Below are positions 8,973 to 60,778 of a stretch of 64,000 bases of DNA, in pieces. A program made the translations under genes and the position numbers. The notes under the pieces are model-generated. The model was not told the origin of the DNA. It saw only the letters and a list, made by a program, of their open reading frames with translations, and made no database searches. The stretch lies in the IMG/VR virus record IMGVR_UViG_3300045988_103544, positions 18,803-82,802 of that record; one strand, 5' to 3'. This DNA is from a virus. The first letter of the stretch is position 1; the number at the start of each line of letters is the position of its first letter.

Positions 8973-9983
8973 TTACTTTTTGACATAGTTACTTAATTTT
9001 TTTATATAATACTTTATAAACTTTAAAGTATTCTGTCGACCATATTTTTTATAAAAATCACTTATATCTTTTACTTTGAATTTATGAGGTATAAAGAAAT
9101 AAAGTAATTCTGGATGATTCCTTCTTATTTTAGCCATATTAAACATTCCAGGTCTATCATTATCATAAAAAGTTACTATATAAGTAAATCTTTCTTTTAG
9201 ATCATTTAACATATTTTCAGACAACCATTGTGTTTCACTATTTGGAGCACAGGCTGTTACACCTAAACTTCTTAAACACATAGTATCTTTCATACTTTTA
9301 GTTATAACTAATAAAGTACCTTTTTTAGGTAACTGACTATAACCCTGAACCTTTTTAGAGGGCCAATTTGTTAGAAATCTATATTCTTTACGTTTAGGAT
9401 AATAAATTCTCCACAATTCTTTACCTTGCATTGTTCCTCCATAATATCCGAAGATAAAGTTATCTTTGGTCTTTATAGTTTGAATATTACCATTTAAAAA
9501 TACAGTACGACAAGAATATACTTTATATTTATTTAGTAATTCTAAAGAAACTCCTTGTTTACCCCACCATTTTAATTCATCTTCTGAGAAATCTTTTATT
9601 TCTACTCGTATATCTGCTGGCTCATTTGTTTTAATAAAAGAAGTGCTTGATTGTATTACAGAATGATAATTATTTTGTCCTTTTAATAAGCCAAAATCTT
9701 TAGCTATAATGTCTAATGCTTGATGGTATTTACAAGCATACTTAGTCATAACTACTGATATAAAGTTTCCATAAAAGCTCCCATTAAAATCATGGAATAT
9801 AAGTTCTCCTTTAGAGTTACGAAAAAAGGAAGCCGTAGGATTTTTATCTTTACGTAAAGGATTACAAATTAATTTTTTTGAAACTTTTACGCCAAGATAA
9901 TACTCCATATAGGCTTCCTCTGTGTTATATTTAAGTAAGTAGTCCTTAGTAATATCTGGTTTATAGGAAAAATCTAATTCCAT
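8973..9983 (-). CDS. hypothetical protein (336 aa)
   Basis: Minus ORF. Confidence 0.5.
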   Translation of the reverse strand: MELDFSYKPDITKDYLLKYNTEEAYMEYYLGVKVSKKLICNPLRKDKNPTASFFRNSKGELIFHDFNGSFYGNFISVVMTKYACKYHQALDIIAKDFGLLKGQNNYHSVIQSSTSFIKTNEPADIRVEIKDFSEDELKWWGKQGVSLELLNKYKVYSCRTVFLNGNIQTIKTKDNFIFGYYGGTMQGKELWRIYYPKRKEYRFLTNWPSKKVQGYSQLPKKGTLLVITKSMKDTMCLRSLGVTACAPNSETQWLSENMLNDLKERFTYIVTFYDNDRPGMFNMAKIRRNHPELLYFFIPHKFKVKDISDFYKKYGRQNTLKFIKYYIKKLSNYVKK

Positions 9984-10006
9984 AAAAACTACTTACTTTA
10001 TAATTA

Positions 10007-10777
10007 CTACATATCTGCCAGCATAGCATCGAAGTCTTCATCTTGAGCCTCCTTGCCTTCAGTAGAGTCAATAGATTTAGCCTCTTCTGAATCAGCTGCT
10101 GGTACAGGAGCAGTAGGCTTACGCTTCTCCATATCTTCTTTCTGCTTAATCTCATAACTAGAGAATGACAATTTATCTTCCTCTAAGCTAGCAAAATTAT
10201 CACGGATATAGAACTGTCCATCACTATTAATAGCTCCAATATCAGGAATCTTAGCAAATACATTGCCAGTTTCCTTTGAGATTCCCTTTTCATCCTTTTT
10301 CTTTTCCTTACGACCGCTAAGCTTTAAATAAAAGTTTTTATTCATACAATGCTTAGTCAATACTGCCTGGAAAAGCTGCATGAATTGGTCAGTACTCTTA
10401 CAAGCAGGAGCTTTAGTTATAAACAATTCTTTAGCTTTATCACCACCTACTACTGTTATAATATGCAGCATAAAACCTTTAAGCTGTTCAAATGCTGAAG
10501 GAAGTACATATGGGAATTCTACACCCTTAGAATCCTTTCTCTTACCCTCATATCTTTTAGCAGAACTTTCATTAGGATAAAATAATGATTCTTGATAAGT
10601 TCCTTGTTCTCCTTCAAAATGAAGTACCAGAGATTTCCAAGTTGTACTAGGGTCTTGTTTACCTTGACCCTCCTTAGTTTCTACACTTTTTAACTGAACG
10701 AGATAAATTCCATAAGGACGAAGACCTTTCTTACTTGTAGGATTAATATCACCAAGACCCCCAAAATTCAAATTCAT
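10007..10777 (-). CDS. hypothetical protein with acidic C-terminal tail (possible SSB-like)
   Basis: 256 aa ending EAQDEDFDAMLADM, reminiscent of SSB acidic tails; speculative. Confidence 0.3.
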   Translation of the reverse strand: MNLNFGGLGDINPTSKKGLRPYGIYLVQLKSVETKEGQGKQDPSTTWKSLVLHFEGEQGTYQESLFYPNESSAKRYEGKRKDSKGVEFPYVLPSAFEQLKGFMLHIITVVGGDKAKELFITKAPACKSTDQFMQLFQAVLTKHCMNKNFYLKLSGRKEKKKDEKGISKETGNVFAKIPDIGAINSDGQFYIRDNFASLEEDKLSFSSYEIKQKEDMEKRKPTAPVPAADSEEAKSIDSTEGKEAQDEDFDAMLADM

Positions 10778-19853: not shown

Positions 19854-20663
19854 TTAGATAACCTTAAACATTGTAACATTCTCAGGAAGATTGTCCCAGT
19901 CTTTATAAGAATTAGTAAACCATACGTGATTAAAGTTTTCTGATAGATTCTTTATACCCTTAGGATTTACCATATGAGTAATTGCGATATTCAAACGTTC
20001 CTTAGGAATACCTAAAGCATTAAATGCTTTAGTAATACCACAAAAAGTGCCTCCACCATCACATAAATCATCAAGAATTAATAATGGTTTATCACTAATT
20101 ATTTCAGGATTGTCTATTTTAATCTCTAAGATTCTTCCAGTAGTTAAATCTCGAACTTTACTACAAGTAATTGCTGTACGATTATATCTGAATTCATTTC
20201 TCTTTTCAGCTCCAGCATCTGGGAAAACTAATTGAAATTCTCTCCAAGTATTATTAGATGGATTCTTTTCAGCGTAAAGAGGCATGAATTTAACTCCGAA
20301 TCTAGGATCATAATAAACATCAGAATGAGGTTCTAAAATTTCAATAGTCTCTGCATTACAATTTTTTAATACATTTAAGACTATTTTTAAAGTGAATGGT
20401 CTATTGAAAACCATTACTCGATCCATTCTCATACTCATTAAGTAATAGATATTTATTTTATATAGAACTTCATGTCTATCAAGGATATCTAAAACTTGCA
20501 TAAGTATAAATAAGTCTTCAGCATTAGTAATTCTACATTGCACTAATACTTGCTCCTTATGGCTGAATTCTTCTAATGAAATTTGAACTTCCCCATCAGG
20601 GAATCTAGAGATAGAATACTTAATATCACTATCTTCTAAATGTACTAAATTTAATTGTTGCAT
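19854..20663 (-). CDS. Ribose-phosphate pyrophosphokinase homolog (PRPP synthetase / possible ADPR-PP synthetase)
   Basis: PRPP-binding motif LLILDDLCDGGGTFCGI; start overlaps the NAMPT gene. Confidence 0.65.
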   Translation of the reverse strand: MQQLNLVHLEDSDIKYSISRFPDGEVQISLEEFSHKEQVLVQCRITNAEDLFILMQVLDILDRHEVLYKINIYYLMSMRMDRVMVFNRPFTLKIVLNVLKNCNAETIEILEPHSDVYYDPRFGVKFMPLYAEKNPSNNTWREFQLVFPDAGAEKRNEFRYNRTAITCSKVRDLTTGRILEIKIDNPEIISDKPLLILDDLCDGGGTFCGITKAFNALGIPKERLNIAITHMVNPKGIKNLSENFNHVWFTNSYKDWDNLPENVTMFKVI

Positions 20664-22696
20664 AATTTATAAATATAAAGAGTTATTGTTGAATCATTAG
20701 CAAAAAGTTCTTGAAGCATAGGATAAACTACTCCATCCCAATCTCCTCCTGCTAATCCACATCCTAATTTATAAGGAATACCTACTTCTGTTACTTCTTC
20801 GTCCTCACAAAAAGCTTTTAAATTTAACAAAGCTTTTTTAAGAGCATTATAATCAGTATGTCTATTTTCAAAAGGAGCTATTGATTCAGTAAAAGAATAT
20901 TCTCCAAATAAATTAGCTACAAATTTAATAGGAAATTCTCCAGTTACACATATTTGACATTTACCTAATAAATTTTTAGAGTATTCAAAATTTTTACAAT
21001 AATTAGCATATTGTGTATATACGCTATTCCATTTATTTTTAATAGCTTTAGCTATACCTGCCCCCATTACTCCTAAACAATTAGTTTGATGGGCTATAAG
21101 AGGTAAATTTGACTGCAGTAAATCTCCATTAACAATTTCTATCATACTAATGTTGAATTTTACACGTTTACGAATTTCAGAAAGAGAATATTTTCTTACT
21201 AATTCTCCATCTACAAAGACTGTTTTAAGACAACCTTGCAGTTCTGCATTCTTAGTCTGCTGGTCATAAGCGACATACTTACCATTCTCTTCTTCAATTC
21301 TAATAAGACCTTTGAGAGAGTTCTTTGTTCCATCATCAGTCTTTGGATGCTTATAGATTTCTATAAGCTTTCCATTAATTATACAAGCAGTTGCTTTAAC
21401 TGCGAAACCCAAAGAATCTCTACTCTTAAATTGATAAGTATAAGATCCAATACCTAGAACAAGATTACAAGCTGCCATATGAGCGTTTTCCAATCTAGCA
21501 TAGATATCACGCTGACGCTCCAGAGTAATAGAATCTCCATAAAGTAATCCAACCTTGGTACTTGGATAACGATAGTCATTTACAGTAGTATTCCATCCAA
21601 AGATTTTTCCTAGCATATAATATGCTCCATAGTACTGACCTTCAGATACTTCTACATAATGATTTTCATCATCGTCCATAAATGGATTGAAATCACAGTA
21701 ATACTTACCTTCTTTCATAGCAGTATGATAGTGAGGATTTGTACGAAGACCACAAATAATGTCTACTGGATCACCACTATCAGGACGAATTACTACTCGA
21801 CCAACACGTTTCATAATATCTGCCTTAAGCTTAGGCAAGAATTTCTCAACTACCTGCCAAAAATCCCAAGTATCAGATACTATTGAGATAATACCTGTTG
21901 GATATAAGTCATTAATAAGACGGCAGTATGTTTCAATCTCACCATCCTCACCTCCTGCGCACATTACTGAATGTTCCGAAGCCGGAACAGTTGCAGCTAC
22001 AAGTTCTTCAGTAACATTTGCATTGTAATAATGTTCTACTGCTTCAATAGCAGGAATTGTTTCACTACCACAGAATGAAGTCATATGAGCCATACCAGAG
22101 ATAATAGCAGCATCAAGTCCTGCCATACCTCTCATTGAGAAATCGTGACAAGAGAAACCTAGATTTACTTCCTCTGGGAATCCAGTCTTTCTAGCATGTT
22201 CCATAAGTCTCTTTTTATAGAGACGAGCACTTGTTGCAGAAGTACAAGGAAGCCATAGAGTACAACTAATTAAAGTTTCCAAGTAATTAGTCAACCAAAA
22301 GAAGTCCGGAAGAGTGTTCTTAATAGTCATCATAGGTACTCTTATAGGACAGATAGAACCTTCAGGAAGAGCTTTAATTTCAATAGAAAGATATCCTAAA
22401 TCATAGAGTTCTTCAATATGCTTTGTCCCAACCTGGTTAAGGTCTACAAAGTTACCTACACGATAAGCAAATTGCTTAATAGCTTCTTCCTTAGGAAGAG
22501 CAAACCATTTGTTAAATTCCTCTATCAAATACTTCTTTACAAAGTACTGAATACCAAATACTACAGAACCTTCTGTAGCTTCTGGGAAGTAACGATTACT
22601 TCTAGGAGTCCAGTTACTATAGACCATTTGTGTACCCTCTGGGTACATACGATGATGACCAAGCTTGTAGCCATCAGTTGCATTAATAATTTCCAT
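20651..22696 (-). CDS. Nicotinamide phosphoribosyltransferase (NadV/NAMPT family) fused to a C-terminal macro domain
   Basis: 681 aa. The N-terminal ~480 aa is NAMPT-like. The C-terminus has the macro-domain signature IAHQTNCLGVMGAGIAKAIKNKW...GIPYKLGCGLAGGDW. Confidence 0.7.
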   Translation of the reverse strand: MEIINATDGYKLGHHRMYPEGTQMVYSNWTPRSNRYFPEATEGSVVFGIQYFVKKYLIEEFNKWFALPKEEAIKQFAYRVGNFVDLNQVGTKHIEELYDLGYLSIEIKALPEGSICPIRVPMMTIKNTLPDFFWLTNYLETLISCTLWLPCTSATSARLYKKRLMEHARKTGFPEEVNLGFSCHDFSMRGMAGLDAAIISGMAHMTSFCGSETIPAIEAVEHYYNANVTEELVAATVPASEHSVMCAGGEDGEIETYCRLINDLYPTGIISIVSDTWDFWQVVEKFLPKLKADIMKRVGRVVIRPDSGDPVDIICGLRTNPHYHTAMKEGKYYCDFNPFMDDDENHYVEVSEGQYYGAYYMLGKIFGWNTTVNDYRYPSTKVGLLYGDSITLERQRDIYARLENAHMAACNLVLGIGSYTYQFKSRDSLGFAVKATACIINGKLIEIYKHPKTDDGTKNSLKGLIRIEEENGKYVAYDQQTKNAELQGCLKTVFVDGELVRKYSLSEIRKRVKFNISMIEIVNGDLLQSNLPLIAHQTNCLGVMGAGIAKAIKNKWNSVYTQYANYCKNFEYSKNLLGKCQICVTGEFPIKFVANLFGEYSFTESIAPFENRHTDYNALKKALLNLKAFCEDEEVTEVGIPYKLGCGLAGGDWDGVVYPMLQELFANDSTITLYIYKLCNN

Positions 22697-29108: not shown

Positions 29109-31094
29109 TTAAATGTTTACTTTATAAATTTTACCTGAGTCTACTCTAACCATAAGTGAATTACGAGAAGTAGCTATAAATCCTAAACCACTCATCTGAT
29201 TATCATCATAAGGAGTCAAAGCTTTAGATGCTAATACTTCAAATACTCTCTTATGATTTTTAGTGAGTTCGTCTTTAAGATATTCATTAAAATATCCACG
29301 AACAGCATCTGGATTCTTACAATCCTTCAGCATAAAGAAATAGTGCTTAGCACCTACCTTATTATTTCCCCAGTAATTTGGAGATAAACATATAGCAGAC
29401 ACTTCAACAAAGTTTTGAGTCTTTACTCCCCAAATTTCTTTAGATGCTGTAGTACTACTCAAATGTTCCTTAGTAAAGATAACTTCATGTCCATTAGAAG
29501 TAAAGTCTAATACTAAAACATCGCTTTTATGAGGGACGTCTTTATCATACACATAAGTATGAATAACTCCATTGAGCTCTACTTCTACTTCAAATCCTAA
29601 ATCAATATTTTCAACTTTAGCAAAGTTGTTAACAAATACTTTATAAGTACCTGCTTTAGGAATTCCTGAGAAAATGATATTTTCTACAGCATTGCGAGAG
29701 AATTTCTTAGGATTATTACGTTCTTCAAAAGCACTACCTCCACAGGCATTCATATCTACATCAAGAAGGTCTGCTTTATTACCATAATAAATGTGTCCAT
29801 AAGGACTATCCATATGTAAATCTAAATCATCGTAATTATACCAATGAAGAGAGATTCTCATATAGCCATCTACCTTACCTCCTACTTCTTTAACACGTTG
29901 TTTAATAGCATCAGAGATATTACCATTATATGCCCAAGCAAACCCATTATTCCATTTAAACATAGAAGGAGCTTCTTTATTAACTGGGGCAGTAAGAGTT
30001 ACTAAATTATTATTTAACTTATTGTCAAAGAATAATTCAAGCTTACTAGCCTTAGAAACAATATTATTAAGGAACTCTTCCATAGTTGTTGGAATCGCAG
30101 TCTTCTCAAAGTCTGTAGCAGTTTTGCTAGTATTAGAAGTTTCATTCATAAGAGAATCAAATCCTCCTAACATTCTCTTACGAGTTTCTCTATTTACAAA
30201 GATAACATCTTCAATAGATATATCTTCTACTTTAGCATGACGACGCTCTAAAGAATCTTCATAGCCAAGTTCTACTACAGTTTTATAAGCATTTTCTACC
30301 TGAGTTTTAGTGATAATACCCTTAGGTCTCTTATAATTATAAGGAGCAACCATAGCTTCAAACTTCTTAACTGAACTTTCAACATTGTTAGTATCAGTTA
30401 TGTCTTTAAGAAGCTGACCTATAGCACTATTAAGTATATGTGTTACAGCATCAGGAAGTACACAAGAAGATATCCAAGTATAATTATCTAACTCAAAACC
30501 TTCCAAGTGCTTATTCTCTATTGTATCAAGAGCAGTCTTTAAAGCACTCACTTGACGTAGATAAGTGTCACCTCTATAGAGGTTATCATCTGCAATTAAG
30601 TTTAATACTGTTTGTACAGAATTATAGTTAATTTCAGATAAAGTTCTTATCCATACATCATGTGAAGATTTAGCACCTGCACGGAATGTTGGAGTCTGAG
30701 ACTTATCCATAATTAAATTACTTGTAGGAGTAGCATAAAAATGATTCCAAGTAATTATTTCTTTAGAAGGTAATATCTGCTGATTACATTTACAACCCAT
30801 TGTAGTCTCTTCTGTAACAAATGCATTTCTAATTTTAGTATTTTTAAGCACTTGTAACATATTGTCTACAACTTTAGCAAACATTCCTTCAGCGTGAACA
30901 TCCTCCCAGTAAGAATGTATTTTATAGTTCTCATCTACAGAGACTAATGCTCCATAGCGAGTAATGAAATGTTTACAATTTACACAGTTAAATTCTTGAC
31001 GTACGGCTCCTTCAGGGAAAGATTCCATATAAGCCATCCATAAAAACTCTTTTTGAGTGTCAAGAATAAAGAGATGTTTGTTCTCTTTAATCAT
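29109..31094 (-). CDS. large hypothetical protein (661 aa)
   Basis: Long minus ORF; contains GKVDGYMR (KxDG-like), not enough to call a ligase. Confidence 0.55.
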   Translation of the reverse strand: MIKENKHLFILDTQKEFLWMAYMESFPEGAVRQEFNCVNCKHFITRYGALVSVDENYKIHSYWEDVHAEGMFAKVVDNMLQVLKNTKIRNAFVTEETTMGCKCNQQILPSKEIITWNHFYATPTSNLIMDKSQTPTFRAGAKSSHDVWIRTLSEINYNSVQTVLNLIADDNLYRGDTYLRQVSALKTALDTIENKHLEGFELDNYTWISSCVLPDAVTHILNSAIGQLLKDITDTNNVESSVKKFEAMVAPYNYKRPKGIITKTQVENAYKTVVELGYEDSLERRHAKVEDISIEDVIFVNRETRKRMLGGFDSLMNETSNTSKTATDFEKTAIPTTMEEFLNNIVSKASKLELFFDNKLNNNLVTLTAPVNKEAPSMFKWNNGFAWAYNGNISDAIKQRVKEVGGKVDGYMRISLHWYNYDDLDLHMDSPYGHIYYGNKADLLDVDMNACGGSAFEERNNPKKFSRNAVENIIFSGIPKAGTYKVFVNNFAKVENIDLGFEVEVELNGVIHTYVYDKDVPHKSDVLVLDFTSNGHEVIFTKEHLSSTTASKEIWGVKTQNFVEVSAICLSPNYWGNNKVGAKHYFFMLKDCKNPDAVRGYFNEYLKDELTKNHKRVFEVLASKALTPYDDNQMSGLGFIATSRNSLMVRVDSGKIYKVNI

Positions 31095-31204
31095 CTTATT
31101 ACATGCTTCTGTAACAAGATTTCTAAAATCTAAGTATTCAATAAAATTTTTAAAAGTTAGAAAAAGAGGAAGAGAATAATCTCTTCCTCTGTGATACTTA
31201 ATGT

Positions 31205-32758
31205 TTATACATTTACATTGGTGTTTTCTACATCGCCATTAACGTTAACATTCTTGTTAACCTTAGCATCAATGGTGTTAGCCTTCATAATGTCTGCCAT
31301 ATCTACACCTGTGGCATCTTTTACAATGTCACGAGTCTGCTTAATAATAGCAGGCACATTACCAGAAATACCAGAAGCCTCAGAGCCATTAGTTCCATAA
31401 ACTGTCATATTACCAATCTTACTCATAGGTTCAGCAATATACTTAGCCATATCAGGAAGAACTTTCTCATTAAGTTTAGAAAGCATGTCAATTACAGCAA
31501 TAGAACCATACTTACTATATGCTTCAGCCTTCTTCTGCATAGCCTCAGCTTCTGCAAGACCCTTAGCCTTCACACCTTCAGCTTCTGCCAAAAGTTTAGC
31601 TTTAGTACCTTCAGCTTCTGCAGTCAAGGTCTGCTGAGTAGCATATGCTTCAGCTTCACCCTTAGCACGAATACCTGCTGCCTCCTGCTCCTGAGAATAA
31701 CGATTAGCTTCAGCCTTAGCTTTTACAGCCTTAGCAGTTTGCTCTGCTTTATAAGCTTCAGCCTCAGCCTCACGCTTCTGCTTCTCCAAAGCAGCCTGAG
31801 CATCAATTTCTGTCTGATACTTGTCAGCATCAGCCTTAGCATTTACATCTGCAAGATACTCATTCTGCTTAATCTTAATCTTCTCCTCAGACAAGGTCTG
31901 TTCCTTACGAGTCTTCTCAATATCAGCATCTACAGTCTTGATATTAATAGTTTTCTGCTGCTCTTGCTGCTGAATTTCATATGCGGCATCAGATTCAGCC
32001 TTCTTAATATCAGATAATCTCTTCAGTTCAGCTCTCTTAATAGCTAATTCATTATTACGTTCAGCAATAATGGTGTCAGCTTTTACTCGTGCTTCATTAG
32101 CCTCATTGTCAGCCTCAGCCTGAGCCTTAGCTACATCTCTATCAGCATTAGCACGGGTAATCTTAGCATTCTTCTGAATAGCTGCTGTATTATCAGCTCC
32201 CAAATCACGGATCAAGCCTTTCTCATCAGTAATATTCTGAATATTGCAAGACAAAATCTCAAGACCTAACTTAGCCATATCAGGAGCTGCCTTCTTCTGA
32301 ATTTCATCAGAGAATGCATCTCTATCAGTGTTAATCCTAATCAAGTCAAGAGAACCTACTACTTCACGCATATTACCTTCCAAGGAATCTTTCACCTGAG
32401 CAGCAATCTGAACAGAATTCATATTCAAGAAGTTCTTAGCTGCAAGTCTAGTGCCTTCTGTATCAGGTTTTACCCTAACTTTACATACGGCATCTACCAT
32501 TACATCCAAGAAATCATGAGTAGGAACTGGTTGTGAAGTCTTAACATCAACTGTTACTTGACCAAGATATACTTTATCTAATCGTTCAAGTACAGGAATT
32601 TTTACTCCACCACCACCGATAAGTACTCGTGGCTCCTTACGAAAACCTGAAAGAATATACGCCATCGAAGGAGGAGCTTTAACATACATTGTAGCAATAA
32701 TAACAAGCAGTACAATAATAACGACTGCGATAACACCAATAAAAACTAAATGTTCCAT
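31205..32758 (-). CDS. SPFH/band-7 flotillin-like membrane protein
   Basis: N-terminal TM helix, SPFH-like core, then a long Ala/Glu/Lys coiled-coil (AEAEAYKAEQTAKAVKAKAEA...) typical of flotillins. Confidence 0.6.
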   Translation of the reverse strand: MEHLVFIGVIAVVIIVLLVIIATMYVKAPPSMAYILSGFRKEPRVLIGGGGVKIPVLERLDKVYLGQVTVDVKTSQPVPTHDFLDVMVDAVCKVRVKPDTEGTRLAAKNFLNMNSVQIAAQVKDSLEGNMREVVGSLDLIRINTDRDAFSDEIQKKAAPDMAKLGLEILSCNIQNITDEKGLIRDLGADNTAAIQKNAKITRANADRDVAKAQAEADNEANEARVKADTIIAERNNELAIKRAELKRLSDIKKAESDAAYEIQQQEQQKTINIKTVDADIEKTRKEQTLSEEKIKIKQNEYLADVNAKADADKYQTEIDAQAALEKQKREAEAEAYKAEQTAKAVKAKAEANRYSQEQEAAGIRAKGEAEAYATQQTLTAEAEGTKAKLLAEAEGVKAKGLAEAEAMQKKAEAYSKYGSIAVIDMLSKLNEKVLPDMAKYIAEPMSKIGNMTVYGTNGSEASGISGNVPAIIKQTRDIVKDATGVDMADIMKANTIDAKVNKNVNVNGDVENTNVNV

Positions 32759-32837
32759 AAATTTGTAAATGTTTAAATAATAAAAATTAAATATCTAAGA
32801 ATTAACTGATGTTAATTCCAAGGGGGCATTTATTTTT

Positions 32838-33992
32838 TTATAATTCGTAATTTACAAGACCTGTAGCTTTACTTGTAGAATAGCAACTATTAATTATATG
32901 TATTCTAATATTCCCATAATCAGTCATAGTTACTACATATTTTTCTTTAATACTTACCATCAATATACGACCATCCTCAAAATAATCTCCAGGTTCCAGA
33001 TATTTTAACTCTTTATCCTCAGTAGTGGAACCATAATCCTCATTGAACTTAATAGACCATTCATTATAGAATTTTCTTTCTTCACTAGTATATTTCTCCC
33101 AATCTTTCTTTTTAATTTCTTTAAACTTATAAAAAGCTTTTAATATATTCTTTATATTTTCAGGAGTAAATTTTAAGTCACAATGTCTGATTTGTACTTC
33201 TCTATACAAATAAGTAAACCTAGAGAACTCAATATTAAAGGTTTCTTTAATATTAGGAAGAGCTTCTACTCCATGAATATTAATTTCAGTTGCTATAGCT
33301 TTAATTAAGTCTATAGTAATAATATTCATAGAATGAGTTAACTCTATAACCTTCTCTATAGCAGTTTTATCTTCCAAAATATCGTTAAGAATTTCTCTAG
33401 TAACTTCCTCGGAAAGATTACTAAAAGACTTTTTATATCTTATTCTAGAAGGTCTACCAAGAAGATTTGGGTCTACATTTAACTCATTAGTAGTAAGTAA
33501 AAATACCTTACGATAAATAGAGTTATAAGTACCATCCATGAAAGAAAGAACATCAGAAGAATTTTTAAATTCTTTCTCATATTCATCAAAGAAGAAGATA
33601 CAGTCAAAATCAATAGATGTAGATAAATATTTTATTAATTTACTATTAGTATCAACACCCATTGATTGCACTAAGATTACAGGAAGCTGTAAACGATTAC
33701 AAAGTTCCTTTGCAACGACCGTCTTACCAGTTCCTTTGATTCCATCTAACAGAACACCTAAATTTCCTGTAGTGTTCTCATATGTCTTTAAGACATAATC
33801 AATAAATTTTTGGTTTAGACCATACAGTTTGTAGTCAAACGTAAAAGACTCAGCGATTTTACTTAAGTAAAATCCAGTCATTGAGACTTTTACTTCATAA
33901 ATACCTTTCGGTAATCCTTCAGGATGAGATACTGTTGTCGCACTACCCTGACTAAAAACGTTGCCATCTTGCAACCAAATTTGTTTACCCAT
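32838..33992 (-). CDS. AAA+ ATPase
   Basis: Walker A LLDGIKGTGKTVVAKEL, Walker B CIFFFDEYEK. Confidence 0.6.
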   Translation of the reverse strand: MGKQIWLQDGNVFSQGSATTVSHPEGLPKGIYEVKVSMTGFYLSKIAESFTFDYKLYGLNQKFIDYVLKTYENTTGNLGVLLDGIKGTGKTVVAKELCNRLQLPVILVQSMGVDTNSKLIKYLSTSIDFDCIFFFDEYEKEFKNSSDVLSFMDGTYNSIYRKVFLLTTNELNVDPNLLGRPSRIRYKKSFSNLSEEVTREILNDILEDKTAIEKVIELTHSMNIITIDLIKAIATEINIHGVEALPNIKETFNIEFSRFTYLYREVQIRHCDLKFTPENIKNILKAFYKFKEIKKKDWEKYTSEERKFYNEWSIKFNEDYGSTTEDKELKYLEPGDYFEDGRILMVSIKEKYVVTMTDYGNIRIHIINSCYSTSKATGLVNYEL

Positions 33993-34110
33993 TTTGATAA
34001 ATGTTTAATAATTATTTTAATAAATTTATAAGAATATCTATGTTATATAACATATTATCAATTATTTTAATAGAGTTATTAATATGTTCTTCCATAATTA
34101 ACAGTTAAAA

Positions 34111-34150
34111 TTAAACAAAAATCCCTGAACTATAATAATAGCCCAGGGAT
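34111..34150 (-). terminator. Rho-independent terminator
   Basis: Minus-strand hairpin ATCCCTG...CAGGGAT (7 bp) followed by TTTTTGTTT. Confidence 0.45.
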
Positions 34151-34185
34151 TAAAAACAAATAATAAAAAACAGTTCTATGAACTA

Positions 34186-34515
34186 GTGGAGCATTGGAGA
34201 GTCGAACTCCAGTCACTCCGATTTGCATCAAAACGTTCTTACAGCATAGGTTTTAAAGACTATCCTTGTCTGTTAGGGTTGACAAGATTAATATTGTCAA
34301 CTTCCACCACTCTGTTCCTAAAGTATACAGAGAACTAATAAAGAAATGAAAAATAGTGCACCTTTCTGTTCCTAAGCAAGTGCTGCTCGACTTATTAGGC
34401 AGCAGCCTGATAAGCAGGAGTCATATTGATAACTCTAGCGATTATTGTTTTGTTGTCTCTCCAACTGTCTTGCTGTGTTTCTTATCTCCTCGAAGTTCAA
34501 AACCACGAATGCCCC
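34186..34515 (-). ncRNA. ssrA: tmRNA (SsrA-like), ~330 nt
   Basis: 5' end GGGGCAT pairs with 3' ATGCTCC-A, including the G3.U70 alanine identity pair. T-arm GGAGTTCGACTCTCC. Internal tag-like frame ...ARVINMTPAYQAAA followed by TAA TAA. Confidence 0.6.
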
Positions 34516-34646
34516 ATACTTAAAAGAGTCCTAAATTAGAACTCTTTAATATCTTCTGATTCTTCGGCTATATGGAAAACCCATATTATACCAATCATCT
34601 GGATCTATTTTATCTTCATTACCCATAATTTAAAACTTAATTAATG

Positions 34647-34976
34647 TTAAAAACTAAATTGAATATCTCTATTAACATCTAATAATCCTCCTTGCCAATT
34701 AGATTGAATATCCATACTAAACCATGTACCATATTTAGTTCTTGCAAACCAAATAAGATGATCGTCGTACTCAGGAATATAACAACCTATAAAATAGTCA
34801 GTATCTCCATTCCATATCCAACTACAGTTAAGAGCACTATTTACTAAATGTATCTTTAGATGTATATTAGCCTTATTAAAAGGAATTACTTTCTTTATAT
34901 AAGCTTTATATAATCTACCTGGTGAACATTTACCGTCGTCAAAGAAATTATAAATCTGTTTCTTTTTTGGAATCAT
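34647..34976 (-). CDS. hypothetical protein (109 aa)
   Basis: Minus ORF. Confidence 0.4.
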   Translation of the reverse strand: MIPKKKQIYNFFDDGKCSPGRLYKAYIKKVIPFNKANIHLKIHLVNSALNCSWIWNGDTDYFIGCYIPEYDDHLIWFARTKYGTWFSMDIQSNWQGGLLDVNRDIQFSF

Positions 34977-35574
34977 TTATTATACACTGTCTTAATATAT
35001 TTTCATTAACTATGTTATCATTTGCTCTTGCGAGTTTATCTAATAACTCTAGATTAAATTCTTCCTTTTGAAACTTGAATTGAATCCAGTTAGGTTCAAA
35101 TTCTCTATAATCTAGATGAGACAGAGGTTCATCTGTGTTAAGTACATATTTAACTAATCTAGTTAAACGTTCTCCAGCTAATTTAGATACTACAAAACCA
35201 GATAAATCATAACCTACACCTCTACTTCTCCAATATTCACCTACTTCAGGTTTAGAATCCGGAGCAACATAGAACATTTTACAATAATCTGAAGACTCTA
35301 AAGTTACATAAGTACCTAACTGACTACTACAACATATACCTAAACCAATATTAGAATACAAATTATTATCACGCTTTAATGTAAGAAATACTGGAACTTT
35401 ATCAGGGTCTAAATTATTAATCTCACAATTACGTAGTGCAGTGTGAGCATACTCAAGTAATTTAGATACTGATATAGTACTTAGTTTAGTATCTTCTTCA
35501 CTTTTGTTCTCTTTAATGGCAGCATCAGAACATCTAGTGTGCCAATTTTTCCATTTATCTCCTTCTAAATACAT
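34948..35574 (-). CDS. hypothetical protein (208 aa)
   Basis: Minus ORF. Confidence 0.45.
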   Translation of the reverse strand: MYLEGDKWKNWHTRCSDAAIKENKSEEDTKLSTISVSKLLEYAHTALRNCEINNLDPDKVPVFLTLKRDNNLYSNIGLGICCSSQLGTYVTLESSDYCKMFYVAPDSKPEVGEYWRSRGVGYDLSGFVVSKLAGERLTRLVKYVLNTDEPLSHLDYREFEPNWIQFKFQKEEFNLELLDKLARANDNIVNENILRQCIINDSKKETDL

Positions 35575-36047
35575 ATTTTTAAATATTTAATTAATCACCA
35601 CCAGGCAGGCTATCCAAATATTGAGGAATAGTTACTTCCGTATTATTCTTCTCTTTTTCAAGTTGCTGAATAGCATTTGACTGTCTATCTACAATTATTT
35701 GCAATTCCAGAATTTTTACTTTCTGATAATAGTAGCTAGGAACTGACCAAGCTAAAACAATTATAAAACAAATTGTTGGTAATATCCAAAGTTTATTCAT
35801 ATTTTTTATTTTTAACACCAAACTACATAAACTCCATGTTCACCCTTATAACGAAAGCTAATCTCAAATCCTAACTCTTTAAGGTAATTATAATATTTGT
35901 CAACATTAGTTGTCGGAAGTATAGAACCAATCCAAGCTGCATAATTACCTTTACTAGCTTCTTTAATTATAGCAAAGTTTATTTGATCTAATATATGCGG
36001 GTCTAATACAGCAGACCTAGATATAGTCTTTGCTTCTGTTGCTTTAA

Positions 36048-36452
36048 TCATAACTTTTTAATTTTTAAACTAGCATCTTTAAACCATATATTAAGTCTAT
36101 CTATGGCACTTTCCCACTCAGATTGAGAGCAGATTTTATAATATTTTAAAAAGTTAGTATTATCTGCACTAAATTGGTATATACCTATACATTTACCACC
36201 AGGAGTGATTTTAGTTACAGTATATCCAGTACCATCATTGATAACTACTTTTAGATAAGATGTGTTATCTTTATAGTAGGGATGTTCTCTAAGAGCGCAA
36301 TTATTAACTTTCAGTTTTTTAGCTCTTATATTATTTATTATTTCTCCTATAGTATTCTCTAAATTATCTCTTTGACTTAAAAACTTTATTTTGAGTTTTT
36401 CCAAGTCCTCAATAGACATTTCCGAATAGTTATTTATATTTTCTGTTTTCAT
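36048..36452 (-). CDS. hypothetical protein (134 aa)
   Basis: Minus ORF. Confidence 0.4.
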   Translation of the reverse strand: MKTENINNYSEMSIEDLEKLKIKFLSQRDNLENTIGEIINNIRAKKLKVNNCALREHPYYKDNTSYLKVVINDGTGYTVTKITPGGKCIGIYQFSADNTNFLKYYKICSQSEWESAIDRLNIWFKDASLKIKKL

Positions 36453-36901
36453 AACTATAATTTCTTTAATATTTTTACATTCTTAATTAATGGTTCACCA
36501 TCAGTACCAGTTTCATTTAACAAATCACCTGTTACTAGATATTTATTGCCAGTAAAGTATGCTACATTTATTATAAAACTATTAAGTGCTATTTCACTTG
36601 TTGGAAATGGAAGAACAGGAGAGTATGTTCCATTTATGTTTTTATGAGCTTCATAAACAGACACACCTTTTTCTTTACCTATTACTTCATTATTATTGTT
36701 CCATATAGATGAACATTCATCTTCTGGAATTTCACCAAATCTATAGAATATCATTTATTTTTTTTAAGTTCTATACTACTAAATGCCAAAAATATCCATC
36801 TACTAGTTGAGATATACCTGGTTCTAAACTTTTTAGGTCTTTGAGAATGGAGTATGTAAATTCTTCTAAGATTTCTAAGTTATTATCGTTATTATTCATG
36901 T

Positions 36902-37252
36902 TCATTTTTCTTTAATACCTAGAATATCGTTGATTTTCCTTTCAATAAACTCATCAGAAGTATTTTCTTTTATTAGAGCATCAATGTCAGGCAACTCTAC
37001 ATCAACTTTATCTTCTTGTACTTTTGAAGTGAACATACCAATTACTAATTTCGCCCAAGGACTATTAGCCATATTTGTTAATGAATCCTTTTGGATTTCA
37101 TAAGCTTTCTTTAATTCTTCATTATCACGGAAATATCTGAGAACATCTGTTAATGCAGCAACAAAGTTTTTGTCAGACATTGAATTGCTTTTAGCCTCTT
37201 CCAGTTTAATCATTAGAAAAAGCAATGATGAATGTAAATCTGTTTTGCTCAT
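36902..37252 (-). CDS. hypothetical protein (116 aa)
   Basis: Minus ORF. Confidence 0.4.
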   Translation of the reverse strand: MSKTDLHSSLLFLMIKLEEAKSNSMSDKNFVAALTDVLRYFRDNEELKKAYEIQKDSLTNMANSPWAKLVIGMFTSKVQEDKVDVELPDIDALIKENTSDEFIERKINDILGIKEK

Positions 37253-45770: not shown

Positions 45771-45840
45771 TGGAGATACGTGGAATCGAACCACAATCTC
45801 AGGATTTTCATCGTGCTCTAACCTTTTGAGCTATATCTCC
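45771..45840 (-). ncRNA. tRNA-like element (70 nt) with canonical acceptor, D and T arms but no foldable anticodon arm
   Basis: GGAGATA/TATCTCC acceptor, GCTC/GAGC D-stem, T-arm TGTGG-TTCGATT-CCACG; middle ACGATGAAAATCCTGAGAT does not form a 5-bp stem/7-nt loop. Confidence 0.3.
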
Positions 45841-45948: not shown

Positions 45949-46032
45949 TACGGTAGAAAGGATTCGAACCAATGACCTTCTCGAAATGACCTATTATAAA
46001 AAGAGATGCTCTAACCACTGAGCTACTACCGT
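45949..46032 (-). ncRNA. tRNA-like element (84 nt) with enlarged 20-nt anticodon-region loop
   Basis: ACGGTAG/CTACCGT acceptor, GCTC-AGTGGTTA-GAGC D-arm, T-arm ATTGG-TTCGAAT-CCTTT; central stem TCTC/GAGA encloses TTTTTATAATAGGTCATTTC. Confidence 0.35.
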
Positions 46033-46087: not shown

Positions 46088-46486
46088 TTAAAAGCCGAAT
46101 GAAAACATGGTATCTGCGGAAGTACTAAGAGTTACGTAAGGAATTTTATTTCTTACTGTAATAAAGACAATAAAGCGTCTTCCTGTATTAACCTCTCCGC
46201 AATTATGGATTTCTACTCCATCCTTCATTTCAGAAGAGTATATTTTTAATACCATTTTACCAAACTTACTATTACTAAAAGTAATAGTTTTTCTAGCTTC
46301 ATTATATACTACTGAAGTTTTAATATATAATGGGTCACTCCATTCACCATCTTGATAAACAGTGATAGAACCATAATTAAACGCATGAGCTATTGTAGTT
46401 AATACAATAAAACTCATTAATAAAATAATCTTTTTCATATTACTCAATCTTTTTAATGTTAGTACGGAGTAAAGGATTCGAACCAA
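46088..46486 (-). CDS. secreted hypothetical protein (132 aa)
   Basis: Signal peptide MKKIILLMSFIVLTTIAHA. Confidence 0.45.
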   Translation of the reverse strand: MVRILYSVLTLKRLSNMKKIILLMSFIVLTTIAHAFNYGSITVYQDGEWSDPLYIKTSVVYNEARKTITFSNSKFGKMVLKIYSSEMKDGVEIHNCGEVNTGRRFIVFITVRNKIPYVTLSTSADTMFSFGF

Positions 46487-46543
46487 TATAACCTCTCTAT
46501 GAATTGTGGAAATGAGGCGCTCTAGCCATTAAGCTAACTCCGC
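46463..46543 (-). ncRNA. tRNA-like element (81 nt) with enlarged 20-nt anticodon-region loop
   Basis: GCGGAGT/ACTCCGT acceptor, D-stem GCTT/GAGC, same unusual T-arm ATTGG-TTCGAAT-CCTTT; stem GCCTC/GAGGT encloses ATTTCCACAATTCATAGAGA. Confidence 0.35.
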
Positions 46544-56345: not shown

Positions 56346-57485
56346 TTATTGCTTTATATATAAAAAATTTCCTCCACCAGTATTCTAAGCATCATATTTT
56401 AATAAATCATCTCTGGTAAATATTTTATCAAAGGTTCTTAATCCTGAATGATAAGTTCCATTATCTAGAGTATATAAATCTACTGTTTTAACATTATTTC
56501 TAGATTTCATAGCTTCTATCTCATCTCTAATATTATCTATACTTCCGGAAACTAAACGAATTTCTTTACCAGCCTATATAATTATTCTTCCTCCAGCTAT
56601 AGAACCATATTCATCAGTTCTATTATTATTAGCTAAAAAATTTAGTCTGTTATTTACAGATTTACCATTTACTATAGCATTTAATATAGGACTTTTTCTA
56701 GAACCATTAGAATTACTTTCCATGAATAATACATTACCTTTAGAATCTGTTTTAAAACCAGTAACAGTATTTTTATATATTGGAGAAATCATACTTCCAT
56801 TAGGAATATCTGAATATTTACCAAAAACAAATTTACCAATAGAATCTATACCTATATAATTCTAATTATTAGGAGATATACTTTCTTTAGATTTGAAATT
56901 AGAAAAAGCAGTAATAGGAGCTGCTATACTATTTATAGGAGTATAATCACCTCTATTTCTATAACCAAAAGTATGCTTTGTTAAATTTATGGATTCTGGT
57001 ATACGATATCTTCTAGAGTTTATTTTAGTAGTATCATTTATAGTATAACTATTTGGAGATATTTCTATTTCTAAATTTTCTCTCCCCTTATTTTTAGTTA
57101 CTTTTTTATTAGGAATTTTAATTCTTTTACTAGTATGCTCAGGTTCTGAATCAAAAAATAACTATAGTTTTCTACTTAATCCATTTCCTACTAAATTAAT
57201 CAACTATTTACCACGTTCCCACATTGTTTCTTCTTTCTATTTAGAAGTAGATATTTTTTTAGCAGTGGGCATTTCTTTATATTTTGCCGGGTGGTATACT
57301 AAAGTAGATGTTGGTTTATAGGGATCTACTCCTTTAGCCTAAACCTATGGAAATATTATACTATTAGCTTTATCAGAATTAATTTTAAAAGGAATCTTAT
57401 TTGATTTTCTTCTACCATACAACTACCCATCTTCATACCAGTAATCATATATTGAATCATTATCAGTAATTACCTATACAGCCAT
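56346..57485 (-). CDS. late protein L8 (~379 aa), TAG-recoded (~11 in-frame TAG)
   Basis: Continuous frame from ATG 57485 (MAVQVITDNDSIYDYWYEDGQ...) through ORF 56574-56792 to ...KYDAQNTGGGNFLYIKQ then TAA at 56346. Only TAG interrupts it. Confidence 0.55.
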
Positions 57486-58606
57486 GGTGTTATTATTATT
57501 ACTGGAGTTCCTAATTTATCTAATATTTTTAATCCTAACACAGCTTTACTGTCTAAATCATATGAACTCCATTTCTACTTATATTCATTAGGATTAAACT
57601 TCCAAATATCTTGTGCCCTATACACTTTCTTACCATTAGATGTTCCTTCCTAAACTAAATGTCCAGCAGCATCAACTCCATTATCTCCAAAGTCTAGATT
57701 ATTATTAGCACCTTTCCAAGGAGTTTTATTAGTTATATTAGAAGCTTTCTGCATAGGTTTCTTAGTAAAGAAATCTAAAGTTTCAGTATTTTCATATACA
57801 GGAATATCTTTATATGGATATATCTTTCTTATATAGTTCTCATGTGGACCATAATCTACATTTATTTTCTTTACTCCATAAGAAGGATTTATAGTTTTAT
57901 TATATAAATAAGCATCAATCATATCATTACCTTTAGCTGCTTTCTAAAATCCAGTATATGCTTCAGGAGCATAGGTATTGTAACCTACACCAGTTGATAT
58001 ATAAGACAATACTCCAGCATGCTTTTTAGGACTTGCTTTATGCATATTATATACTATGTCTTCTATAGGATTAGCATTATTAGAAGTTCTCATAGCTACT
58101 TCTACTCCACGTTTTAAAGGAGCTTTTACAGCATATCCTATTGCAGGAAGCATTACTAAATAATTACTAGCTTTAGTTGGATTCTTAGATATATCTAAAG
58201 CACCTTTAGTATAATCATATACTGCCTAAGCAGCTGGAGCTAAAGCATAACCTATTCCTGAATTAACTAATGCTTTAATAGGACTAGTATTATTATTCCA
58301 ACTATCTACTTCTCTAGCATAAGCTCCTTTTATAGGATGGGTTCTATTCTTATTACTATAATTATATAATTTAGAATGAGTATGTCCTCCCTATTTTATA
58401 GTCCCTCTATTATCTACAAATACATCTTGTACCCCATTTAAAGTTCTAACTGGAATAACTCTCTACTAATATTTAGCACCAAGATATGGAGATTTAAATC
58501 TAAGATGATTTAGTCTATTATAATATTCCATATCTATAGCCATCTATTTATTCCGAGTATTATTATTTACTCCTTTATTTTGTTTACTTTCATCTACTAT
58601 TGGCAT
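57470..58606 (-). CDS. late protein L7 (~378 aa), TAG-recoded
   Basis: ATG 58606 (MPIVDESKQNKG...) runs continuously through track ORFs 57944-58153 and 57650-57922, joined by TAGs, to TAA at 57470. Confidence 0.5.
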
Positions 58607-58608
58607 AT

Positions 58609-58824
58609 TTATACTTTATTTTTCCATATACTAGTTATACTATCTATACCTAGTAATCCCATACAACAATATAAAACTGTATCTATCATATCAGGAGCTT
58701 GTATCTAACTAATAGAACAGTATATTAGAATAATTAAACTTACTATCCATCCTAATATTCCACATACTCTTTTACTACTTATTCCAGTATGTGCTGTTAT
58801 TAATTTAATTAAAAACTATTTCAT
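58609..58824 (-). CDS. small 2-TM membrane protein (holin-like, 71 aa), TAG-recoded
   Basis: MK(TAG)FLIKLITAHTGISSKRVCGILGWIVSLIILIYCSIS(TAG)IQAPDMIDTVLYCCMGLLGIDSITSIWKNKV; its ATG overlaps the upstream TGA stop (ATGA). Confidence 0.4.
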
Positions 58825-59959
58825 TTCTAAGAATTATTTAAGAACGGTAAACTCATACCTATAGGTGCTGCTATTTTGAATACATTAGGATCTAACTTAG
58901 GAATAGTTAATCTAGAATCTCGTAATATATTTCCAGTTATTCCTTTAAGAGGTATTCTATTCCTTTTCATATTAAGTGGAATTAAAAAATCCTCATTTAT
59001 TTCATACTCAATATTAGGATAATTACCTATTATATTAGAAGCTTTATACTAGTTAAGCTACGTTTTTGGTATATCTATATACTATAATTCTATAGGATTG
59101 TCAACTCCTTCTTTTATAGCTTTTCTTCGAGTATTAGAAGCATATATTAATGTTTTTCTTGGGTTATCAGTAAACCACATTCCTGTATATTTAGCTGTCC
59201 CATCCGGAGATGGAGTAAATTTACCATTAGTACCAGAAGCTCTATATAATCTCACCATACCCTAATCTAATTTAGGTTTCTAAAATATTCCTACTTCAAT
59301 AGGTTCTTTAGTTCCTTTCATAGTAAGTTGTCTAGTTTCATTCTAGATAAATCCAAAGTCTTTACCAAATCTATTTATACCATGAATACCTCCTTTAGAT
59401 ACAGAACCCCAAGTAGAGAGATTAGCACCTTCAGGTACTTCATCTGCAACCTTAGCAAATAGCTACATTTTATTACCATAGCTTAAACCATTTCTATCTG
59501 TTTTAAAATGAACTGAATAATTATTAGGTTCAGCATCCTTTACTAGTCCAAATCTTTGATTAGGCTATTGTTTAAAGAAATAAGAAGTAGCTTCATTTCC
59601 TTCAGCTTTTCTAGTACTCCAAGCTTTTCTAGTAGGTCTGTAATAAGATAACTGCATAATAGGATTATCTCCTGTTGTGTATTCTTTAGCAGCTAAGTTA
59701 TTAGTAATTCCTTGAGATACATTTCTAGTTAAATTTCCAGCAGTCTCATTAAGTAAACTATTTCTTGCCCAATGTGAAACTGTATTCTAACCCATCTTAG
59801 AGAGTGCTATTTTACCTAAACCTAATCCTAAATTTCCTGCAGCAATTCCTACTACAAATTCTCCTACTGGATCTGCTCCTGACATAGCTCCTGCTTGAGG
59901 ATTAGTACTAGTTTTAGTATTTCCATACTAATCTTTTACTGTAACTATCTCACTATGAG
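58821..59959 (-). CDS. late protein L5 (~379 aa), TAG-recoded (~13 in-frame TAG)
   Basis: ATG 59959 MPHSEIVTVKDQYGNTK...GGIHGINRFGKDFGFIQNE...LPFLNNSQK ending TGA 58821; possible longer N-terminus upstream. Confidence 0.45.
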
Positions 59960-60262
59960 GCATACTCCTCTTAGCTAAAGCTAATCTTTCTTTAATTGGT
60001 AGATTATTATATTTAGCTTTTAAATTTTTAGCGGCAGGCTATAATCTATTTTTTAAATTAGTAGGATTAAGAATTCCTCTAGATTGAGTATTTCTAGTTA
60101 TTTCTTAATCCTACTTAGATTGTTGCCACGGTAATCCAGTGGTTTTAAAATTTAATTTACCTGTTTTCTAATATTTAGATATCCATTTCATATCTCTTTA
60201 AATATTTATCCCATAACTATTTATCTCTCTCACTTACAAAATCTAAAAATCTTTGTAATTCC

Positions 60263-60778
60263 TCAATCTTTTCTGTCAAAATATATGTATCCATTATTAT
60301 TTTTATTGGGTTTTAAATTAAATCCACTACCTTTAGTTTTAGTAACATACAATGTTGGGAGAACATTAGCTCCATCATAAACTACTTTAGTTCCGCCATT
60401 ATTATAGTCATAATCGGAACCTAGATAGTCCATAGTATAATCTAAAGGCTAACCACTATTAGGTTTTATATATTGATCTTTACTTAAATAATATATCTTA
60501 TTATCTTTACTCCAAGATTTATCTCCTAAATCTGGATAAGTCGGATGAGTTTTAGTTTTATAAGTCCCTGAAGCTCCTTCATCAGGAAAATGCCCAGTAG
60601 GAATATACCTATTCCAATTATGTGCTAGAATACTGTTTAACTATAACCAAGCTACTATAGGTTGGTCATTATAGTATTTTCTATAATCGTAATGGTCTTT
60701 AGATAAATCCTAATTACCCCATGCTTGAGATAACTATTTACTCCAAATATTATAATTATTATTATTTATTTCTGGCAT
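60263..60778 (-). CDS. late protein L4b (~171 aa), TAG-recoded
   Basis: MPEINNNNYNIWSK(TAG)LSQAWGN(TAG)DLSKDHYDY...YFDRKD ending TGA; start overlaps the upstream gene end. Confidence 0.45.

Follow-up and report, generated by a model that had tools for sequence, protein, structure and literature searches.

The 64,000-nucleotide stretch of viral DNA analyzed here (positions 18,803 to 82,802 of the IMG/VR record IMGVR_UViG_3300045988_103544, referred to below as the window) carries on its minus strand a one-piece tmRNA gene that is very probably genuine and the phage's own. Both its anatomy and its homology support the identification of this gene as a member of the one-piece tmRNA family, and comparison with related viral contigs indicates that it has been conserved in a group of large human-gut phages that recode TAG.

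The tmRNA gene is called by ARAGORN at positions 34186 to 34515 of the minus strand (330 nt), with the tag ARVINMTPAYQAAA and the stop codons TAA TAA, a span identical to the one proposed in the preliminary description of this DNA. In a permissive Rfam search of 901 nt, the RF00023 model aligns to the gene from end to end (model positions 1 to 374) with a score of 44.4 bits and an E value of 3.1e-16, a match that is far beyond chance. The gathering score of RF00023 is 47 bits, however, and the copy in the window lies below it, so that a default Rfam scan misses this gene; a scan of the whole window with the curated thresholds returned twelve tRNAs and no tmRNA. The Rfam comparison that had been suggested as a check therefore produces a full-length match (E value of 3e-16) in one mode and a false negative (44.4 against 47 bits) in the default one. 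Two relatives score above the gathering threshold: L003, with 91.5% identity to the window copy, reaches 49.1 bits, and the more distant L023 reaches 65.1 bits. The E-value mode of Rfam gave no output for three other relatives (L001, L011, and L015), where it also missed a tRNA-Tyr found by ARAGORN. The Rfam score of the window copy is one of two formal tests of family membership with a negative outcome, the other being the presence of a true PK1 (see below).

The mature RNA is predicted from the ARAGORN call and the RF00023 alignment to be ∼329 nt long, extending from G1 to the discriminator A (34187 to 34515, minus strand), and its elements follow each other in the standard order: 5' acceptor strand, D-loop analogue, helix P2a-d, hairpin, leader, tag with helix 5, core, 3' strand of P2, T arm, and 3' acceptor strand. 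The tRNA-Ala-like domain recognized in the preliminary description is present in all its parts. On the minus strand, GGGGCAT (34515 to 34509) pairs with ATGCTCC (34194 to 34188), the discriminator A occupies position 34187, and the third acceptor pair is the expected G.U, that is, the G3.U70 identity pair. The T arm reads TGGAG-TTCGACT-CTCCA (34211 to 34195), so that the T arm, the 3' acceptor strand AUGCUCC, and the discriminator A together span positions 34187 to 34211. The 5' half of the domain (34497 to 34515) consists of the acceptor strand GGGGCAU and the D-loop analogue UCGUGGUUUUGA. The GGUUUUGA D-loop analogue is accompanied by neither a D stem nor an anticodon arm; both it and the T arm align to RF00023 with posterior probabilities near 1. 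The CCA end is not encoded in the window copy, where the discriminator A is followed by C-T-A, but it is encoded in some of the relatives.

The long helix P2 was delineated from an RNAalifold consensus and, for its 3' strand, also from the family alignment. Its 5' strand (34467 to 34496, minus strand) comprises P2a (ACUUCGA), P2b (GAAAC), P2c (ACAGCA), and P2d (AGAC), and its 3' strand (34215 to 34260) comprises the segments GUCU, UGCUGU, GUUUU, and UCGGAGU. The position of PK1 is taken by the hairpin GUUG-GAGAGA-CAAC (34452 to 34465), which is evident both by direct reading and in the RNAalifold consensus and has the form ACUUG-GAUAGA-CAAGU in the other tag group. This hairpin has only 4 to 5 bp, and a downstream segment complementary to its loop was not found. 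In E. coli tmRNA, PK1 can be replaced by a hairpin, and the missing PK1 therefore does not exclude function. The hairpin is followed by the A-rich single-stranded leader AAAACAAUAAUC (34440 to 34451), which aligns to the Rfam consensus AAAAAAUAAuU that precedes GCa, and the context of the resume codon is conserved.

The tag reading frame, with its Ala-Ala end and double stop, had likewise been noticed earlier and occupies positions 34439 to 34392 of the minus strand (ARAGORN coding part 77 to 124). It starts at the resume codon GCU and runs through 14 codons, which encode ARVINMTPAYQAAA, to UAA UAA (GCT AGA GTT ATC AAT ATG ACT CCT GCT TAT CAG GCT GCT GCC TAA TAA). The end of the frame overlaps helix 5 (34381 to 34404), a perfect 6-bp stem UGCUGC/GCAGCA that holds both stop codons in its loop. 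The stop codons of the E. coli tag are placed in the loop of helix 5 in the same way. This stem is weaker in the alleles whose tags end in ...YAIAA, with 78.8% of the cells paired.

Downstream of helix 5 lies a candidate PK2-PK4 core of ∼120 nt (34261 to 34380), whose sequence is better conserved than that of any other part of the RNA. It allows three H-type pseudoknots to be drawn, but the Rfam posterior probability is low there, in L023 as well as in the window copy, and the stems are invariant in 26 distinct sequences; because these candidate stems never vary, covariation speaks neither for nor against them. The check for conserved pseudoknots that the preliminary description had proposed yielded a plain hairpin at the PK1 position and candidate PK2-PK4 stems devoid of variation.

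The 3' end of the gene is followed directly by a small hairpin with a U run (AGUUC-AUA-GAACU, 34165 to 34184, minus strand), identified by direct reading, which is likely to be a first, weak terminator and is retained, though with other bases, in relatives such as L017 (UGGUU-CAUAA-AACCA). It is succeeded by a strong intrinsic terminator with a 14-bp stem and a U tail (34110 to 34151). Three terminator-like sites were found, versus 0.3 expected in shuffled sequences. On the promoter side, matches to the sigma-70 consensus are no more frequent than in shuffled sequences, and inspection by eye of the region upstream of the tmRNA revealed no Bacteroidetes-type TAnnTTTG motif.

Exact-pattern scans detected the same gene in 36 IMG/VR viral contigs of 94 to 225 kb, almost all of which come from a single human-associated data set. 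It is also present in the GenBank entry MT835492, an unannotated “Bacteriophage sp.” from human faeces that is the closest, and the only matching, phage record in GenBank. The 35 complete copies that were extracted are 84.4 to 99.7% identical to the window copy (median, 88%). A further scan with a degenerate pattern added a single family member, and the family appears to be exhausted at this level of similarity. The gene thus resides on phage genomes, inside syntenic viral contigs. The order small ORF-tmRNA-AAA ATPase is kept even in contigs whose ATPases share only ∼53% protein identity, at ∼85% DNA identity of the tmRNA; it follows from this conservation of gene order despite the divergence of the ATPase that the tmRNA is an old, vertically inherited core gene of the clade that evolves more slowly than its protein-coding neighbors.

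Selection on the RNA structure is evident from the comparison of the family members. The three types of the tRNA-like domain (TLD) were not aligned correctly by MAFFT at their 5' ends, and the acceptor stem, P2a, and the T arm were therefore compared by anchored extraction. For the tRNA-like domain and P2a combined, eight haplotypes can be distinguished among the 36 copies, and all of them have a 7-bp acceptor stem, a 7-bp P2a, and a 5-bp T stem, fully paired in every case, and G3.U70 is unchanged in 36 of the 36 copies. The acceptor stem occurs in three variants (GGGGCAU/AUGCUCC, GGGGCUA/UAGCUCC, and GGGGAUG/CAUCUCC), all of them complementary; P2a occurs in five (such as ACUUCGA/UCGGAGU and UUGUAUA/UAUGCAA), and the T stem in four (UGGAG/CUCCA, AGGGG/CCCCU, GACGG/CCGUC, and GAGGG/CCCUC). 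In the MAFFT alignment, 96.9% of the cells of the structure model are paired, as opposed to 37 to 43% when the partners are slid by 1 to 3 columns, and helix P2 reaches 99 to 100%. Changes on both sides of a pair were seen at five of the seven pairs of P2a, four of the five pairs of the T arm, and one of the five pairs of P2b. This pattern indicates that the RNA structure is maintained by selection.

The tag frames are open in all 36 copies and encode three types of tag, ARVINMTPAYQAAA (10 copies, including the one in the window), ARVINMTPVSYAIAA (8 copies), and GEVNNTS[V/A]SYAIAA (18 copies). Within the types, the differences amount to five synonymous third-position substitutions, one A/V replacement, and two stop-to-stop changes (TAA/TGA, in two of the three types); the frames end in TAA in 26 copies, in TGA in 10, and in TAG in none. 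Such drift points to coding constraint on the tag. Taken together, the compensatory pairing and the within-type drift of the tags argue for a functional, translated tmRNA rather than a relic or an att fragment.

Several relatives show departures from this common plan. Fourteen contigs carry a tRNA-like domain in which the T loop is the noncanonical GGCAGUA and the D-loop analogue has changed to AACUAGUAUUUGA; this form escapes recognition by ARAGORN. In L035 and L018, a group I intron (RF00028, 86 to 87 bits) is located inside the T loop of the tmRNA. This intron carries, on the opposite strand, a 209-aa ORF, and a Pfam search of the L035 version revealed no recognizable homing-endonuclease domain. 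L023 is longer than the other copies by ∼130 nt, located in a U-rich loop of the core. The TLD, P2a, and tag modules are distributed among the contigs as a mosaic, which suggests recombination, and co-conversion around the intron site is a possible cause of it.

The genomic setting is that of a large phage with a mixed genetic code. The window has a G+C content of ∼30%, and nearly all of its long ORFs are on the minus strand. Its standard-code ORFs include a DNA helicase, a primase, a DnaB-like helicase, and a nicotinamide phosphoribosyltransferase-phosphatase fusion, and the PHROG matches are to a phage helicase, a primase, and a tail/transglycosylase protein. The preliminary description had assumed a genome in which TAG is read as sense. 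Such reading is real, but only in one late/structural block (56346 to 63186), where six ORFs, one of which encodes a transglycosylase or tail-type protein, hold 45 in-frame TAGs and where the reading of TAG as a sense codon lifts the ORF coverage from 0.2-0.3 to ∼0.8; elsewhere, just three in-frame TAGs are found across 30 ORFs (of at least 150 codons, counted from stop to stop). The dependence on a suppressor tRNA, also assumed at that stage, is not secured in the window, since the sole “tRNA-Stop” reported by ARAGORN has the anticodon TTA, not CTA; its gene, which is tRNA-like, departs from the tRNA model by 15 inserted nucleotides in the anticodon loop, and its T stem is defective. Gut phages that combine standard-code early genes with recoded late genes have been described previously (Borges et al. 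preprint), and the recoded block of the window matches this early/late pattern.

The tmRNA itself sits in the standard-code (early/middle) part, among tRNA genes, with the two tandem terminators closing it off. It is preceded by a 109-aa ORF of unassigned function (34647 to 34976) and followed by genes for an AAA ATPase (32838 to 33992) and an SPFH/flotillin protein. A tblastn search, with a working positive control, detected no SmpB in the window. In a scan of the viral collection that confirmed 451 SmpB relatives, most of them at the ends of short prophage-like contigs, the tmRNA-phage clade was absent from the best 80 of them. With SmpB absent from the window, the tmRNA presumably uses the SmpB of the host. 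That host is likely a member of Bacteroidales, possibly Prevotella, judging by the Bacteroidales affinity of the tmRNA (see below) and by a 314-bp segment (∼36458 to 36771) that is 86% identical to Prevotella Lak phages and is the sole stretch that the window has in common with them.

By analogy with bacterial trans-translation, we infer the following course of events. The transcript would be trimmed by the host RNase P and 3' exonucleases and supplied with CCA by the host CCA-adding enzyme, and the host alanyl-tRNA synthetase (AlaRS) would charge it with alanine through G3.U70. The host SmpB and EF-Tu would then deliver the RNA to ribosomes that have stalled on reaching the 3' end of a message with no stop codon. 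Translation would resume on GCU and append (A)-ARVINMTPAYQAAA, and termination at UAA UAA would free the ribosome and leave the product marked for proteolysis. For the phage, the most likely gain would be additional capacity for ribosome rescue during infection, a time when many non-stop complexes could arise from mRNA decay and, later, from TAG suppression. Such complexes are known to result from the read-through of stop codons and are acted on by tmRNA, which in recoded E. coli is the main system that resolves stalls at unassigned UAG codons (Ma et al. 2018).

A functional link between the tmRNA and recoding is plausible, and in one reading the gene would serve the code switch specifically. 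According to this more specific reading, which sharpens an idea of the preliminary description and would refine the preferred explanation of general ribosome rescue and not exclude it, the tmRNA clears ribosomes that read through TAG-terminated messages of the host or of the early phage genes and destroys the extended products. We consider this possible but on balance improbable. The TAG-recoded block is in the same genome, the tmRNA gene belongs to the standard-code part, to which Borges et al. assign code-switch functions, the recoded E. coli data assign to tmRNA the leading role in resolving altered UAG decoding (Ma et al. 2018), and none of the 36 tag frames ends in TAG, with TAA/TGA switches occurring in both directions. 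The absence of TAG is weak evidence, however, because most bacterial tmRNA tags end in TAA; moreover, phage G, the huge phages of Al-Shayeb et al. (2020), and other large phages for which recoding has not been reported also have tmRNAs, and no clear suppressor tRNA or release factor adjoins the gene in the window. The still stronger proposition that the tmRNA is an integral component of the code switch, so that stop-codon reassignment in gut phages would require trans-translation as a partner, is rather doubtful. A corollary of this proposition is that the TLD variants, including the one with a noncanonical T loop and D loop, would track the AlaRS/SmpB specificity of the hosts or else represent escape alleles from the group I intron that homes into the T loop.

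General ribosome rescue should also be weighed against the idea that the phage hijacks host quality control by replacing the tag. In that case, the phage tag of 14 to 15 residues would displace the 9-residue host tag and alter the fate of the rescued proteins, through recognition by a different protease or adaptor, slower or faster degradation, or the blinding of a host response that monitors trans-translation. The tags ARVINMTPAYQAAA, ARVINMTPVSYAIAA, and GEVNNTS[VA]SYAIAA are indeed longer than, and different from, the Bacteroidales tags GENNYALAA and GANNYALAA. Their C-terminal part is what changes fastest between the alleles (6 substitutions and a 3-nt deletion in 21 nt), and two stable C-terminal motifs coexist across the TLD types. 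All of the tags, however, keep the C-terminal Ala-Ala of the canonical degron, and neither an adaptor nor a protease encoded by the phage was found next to the tmRNA gene, which makes tag replacement an unlikely purpose of the gene.

Another alternative is that the gene is a passive passenger, such as a recently captured host ssrA or an ssrA-derived attP, that has no function in the phage. tmRNA genes are classic integration targets, prophage ends often carry 3' fragments of ssrA, and many of the SmpB-adjacent viral contigs look like prophage ends of this kind. The gene in the window, by contrast, is full length, including its 5' half, and none of the ten ORFs searched around it (29109 to 37252) encodes an integrase. 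Its 3'-terminal 21-mer has no match in 185,579 bacterial genomes that represent one species each, the 3' ends of types C and D being common to the tmRNAs of many phyla, and among 120 fetched bacterial loci there was no tmRNA that resembled the phage RNA beyond 28 nt. The lack of a bacterial near-match argues against both a recent capture and an attP fragment, and throughout a deep phage clade the gene keeps its synteny and shows purifying as well as compensatory selection. An integration remnant derived from ssrA is thus largely refuted by the full length of the gene, the ten integrase-free ORFs, and the missing 21-mer, and the passenger explanation as a whole is very improbable. Least credible is the view that the tRNA-like match arose by chance or that the gene is a pseudogene in decay. 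The score below the Rfam gathering threshold and the only modest advantage of the single-sequence fold over shuffled sequences (z = -2.2) could be adduced in its favor, but it is refuted by the comparative data, that is, by 36 intact copies with compensatory changes and synonymous-only tag drift, in addition to the E value of 3e-16 over the full model and the independent ARAGORN call.

A tmRNA in a large phage is, by itself, no surprise. The interest of this one lies in its presence in a clade of abundant, large, TAG-recoded human-gut phages, where a conserved and evidently functional tmRNA is missed by default Rfam. The type B variants, which account for ∼40% of the family copies, are missed by ARAGORN as well, and phage tmRNAs are therefore probably undercounted. 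A compact natural tmRNA of 329 nt that has a hairpin for PK1, swappable TLD and tag modules, and intron alleles could be useful in work on minimal tmRNAs. Should the gene prove to be tied to the code switch, ribosome rescue would join the functions needed for stop-codon reassignment.

The phage RNA shares with RF00023 and the bacterial one-piece tmRNAs the tRNA-Ala-like domain with G3.U70, the discriminator A, and the GUUCGA T loop, the GGUUUUGA D-loop analogue, the long helix P2, the A-rich leader, the GCN/GGC resume codon, the Ala-Ala end of the tag, and the stop codon in the loop of helix 5. It differs from them in that its PK2-PK4 region does not align to the RF00023 consensus and in that the window tag has 14 residues and ends in ...YQAAA instead of the canonical ...YA(L/I)AA. 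The two Bacteroidales tmRNAs that were fetched are 400 and 410 nt long, compared with 329 nt for the phage RNA, which is ∼70 nt shorter, and one of them (L089, with the tag GENNYALAA) forms an H-type PK1 (CGAGC/GCUCG with GCAGU/ACUGC) where the phage RNA has a plain hairpin. The same Bacteroidales tmRNA has before its resume codon a leader that provides the same kind of context as in the window. It further shares with the phage GEVNN... alleles the resume context AAAAA(U/G)UAAUU-GGC-GAA and the ending ...UAC GCU.U. GC. GCC UGA, and its tag fits the pattern GE.NN..YA.AA that is common to relatives of the window copy. The deeper affinity of the phage tmRNA is with Bacteroidales, with only the resume context and the tag pattern pointing there. 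An interruption of the kind seen in L035 and L018 also has a bacterial counterpart, a tmRNA gene of Clostridium botulinum that is said to carry a group I intron in its T loop (an observation attributed to K. P. Williams); the window copy, by contrast, is intronless.

Among phages, tmRNAs are present in mycobacteriophages of cluster C and in phiCbK-like phages, and phage annotation pipelines routinely call them. A tmRNA has been reported in phage G (PMC12484599), and for huge phages both tmRNAs and SmpB are on record (Al-Shayeb et al. 2020, PMC7162821). Since phage tmRNAs are documented, the kind of gene is already known, and the statement in the preliminary description that such genes are uncommon in phages was overstated. 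Targeted literature searches retrieved no description of a tmRNA in alternatively coded gut phages or in this clade, and neither the Borges et al. preprint nor the phAss-1 paper mentions one. The gene in the window resembles the tmRNAs of large and huge phages in being a full gene on a large, tRNA-rich genome, detectable by ARAGORN and located among translation-related RNA genes, and in its presumed role, which is to sustain or manipulate translation during infection. Some of the huge phages carry SmpB, in contrast to the window, where none was found, and the phages of the present clade are set apart from the huge phages by their size of 94 to 225 kb, their origin in the human gut, their Bacteroidales-like character, and their recoding of TAG.

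In two of the phage contigs that carry a homologous tmRNA gene (loci L035 and L018), a group I intron, scoring 85.9 and 87.3 bits, respectively, against the Rfam group I intron model RF00028, splits the gene within its T loop (GGAGUU/.../CGACUCUCC). The intron core occupies positions 9861-10117 of L035 (entire insertion, ~9877-10743) and positions 397-648 of L018. The L035 intron carries, on the opposite strand, an ORF of 209 aa (10044-10673) in which no homing-endonuclease domain was recognized.

A different departure from the window-type tmRNA is found in 14 members of the family (L001, L019, L021, L025-L033, L036, and L038; for example, L001 3084-3416), whose tRNA-like domains have the acceptor stem GGGGCUA/UAGCUCC, a T arm (GACGG-GGCAGUA-CCGUC) in which the UUCGA motif is missing, and a D-loop analogue (AACUAGUAUUUGA) that lacks the GG. 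The stems are all intact in these copies, yet none of them is called by ARAGORN. The variant domain could represent either a coordinated change of the contact between the T loop and the D loop or an allele that is immune to the T-loop intron.

The top score of the family against the Rfam tmRNA model RF00023 (65.1 bits) belongs to the L023 copy (6900-7359, minus strand), which, at 460 nt, exceeds the other copies by ~130 nt; its insert has a higher G+C content, stands in for the U-rich variable loop after GGUG, and matches no Rfam family. Two short, G+C-rich viral contigs each encode a 75-nt tRNA-like gene (L011 4401-4475 and L015 2996-3070) with an acceptor stem and T arm exactly as in the window tmRNA (GGGGCAU...UGGAGUUCGACUCUCCAAUGCUCCA), no tag region, and a tRNA-Tyr gene directly downstream. 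These 75-nt genes are named by neither ARAGORN nor Rfam.

Downstream of the window tmRNA, the AAA ATPase gene (32838-33992) is uninterrupted. In several relatives, its halves are set apart past approximately codon 90 by 1.2 to 1.3 kb (L003 3867-5174, L010 8517-9824, and L001 3883-5039) or, in the otherwise near-identical L014, by ~330 nt (9363-9691), and Rfam detects no group I intron in these insertions. Auxiliary genes of the window, both on the minus strand, encode a 517-aa SPFH/flotillin-family protein (31205-32758, two genes downstream of the tmRNA) and a 681-aa fusion protein that combines a nicotinamide phosphoribosyltransferase with a phosphatase domain (20651-22696).

Six minus-strand ORFs at 56346-63186, one of them coding for a transglycosylase or tail-type protein, contain 4 to 11 in-frame TAG codons each (45 altogether), and such codons are nearly absent from the rest of the window; this region is a TAG-recoded late module that adjoins standard-code replication genes. 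No suppressor tRNA with a CTA anticodon was called within the window. Its minus strand also encodes three odd tRNA-like genes (45949-46032, 46463-46543, and 45771-45840; 46 to 53 bits against the Rfam tRNA model), the first of which is reported by ARAGORN as "tRNA-Stop (tta)," with the other two uncalled. Compared with the tRNA model, two of the three carry extra nucleotides in the anticodon loop (15 and 11 nt), and their T stems each contain two mismatches; in the third, the anticodon arm is shortened. In the relatives L004 and L010, ARAGORN reports "tRNA-???" with an anticodon of 2 nt.

A 99-aa ORF at 36455-36754, which has no Pfam or PHROG matches, may represent a mobile or exchanged gene. 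It coincides with 314 bp (~36458-36771) that are 86% identical to six genomes of Prevotella Lak megaphages, with no Lak match over the remainder of the 20-kb query. This likeness to the Lak phages hints at a Prevotella host.
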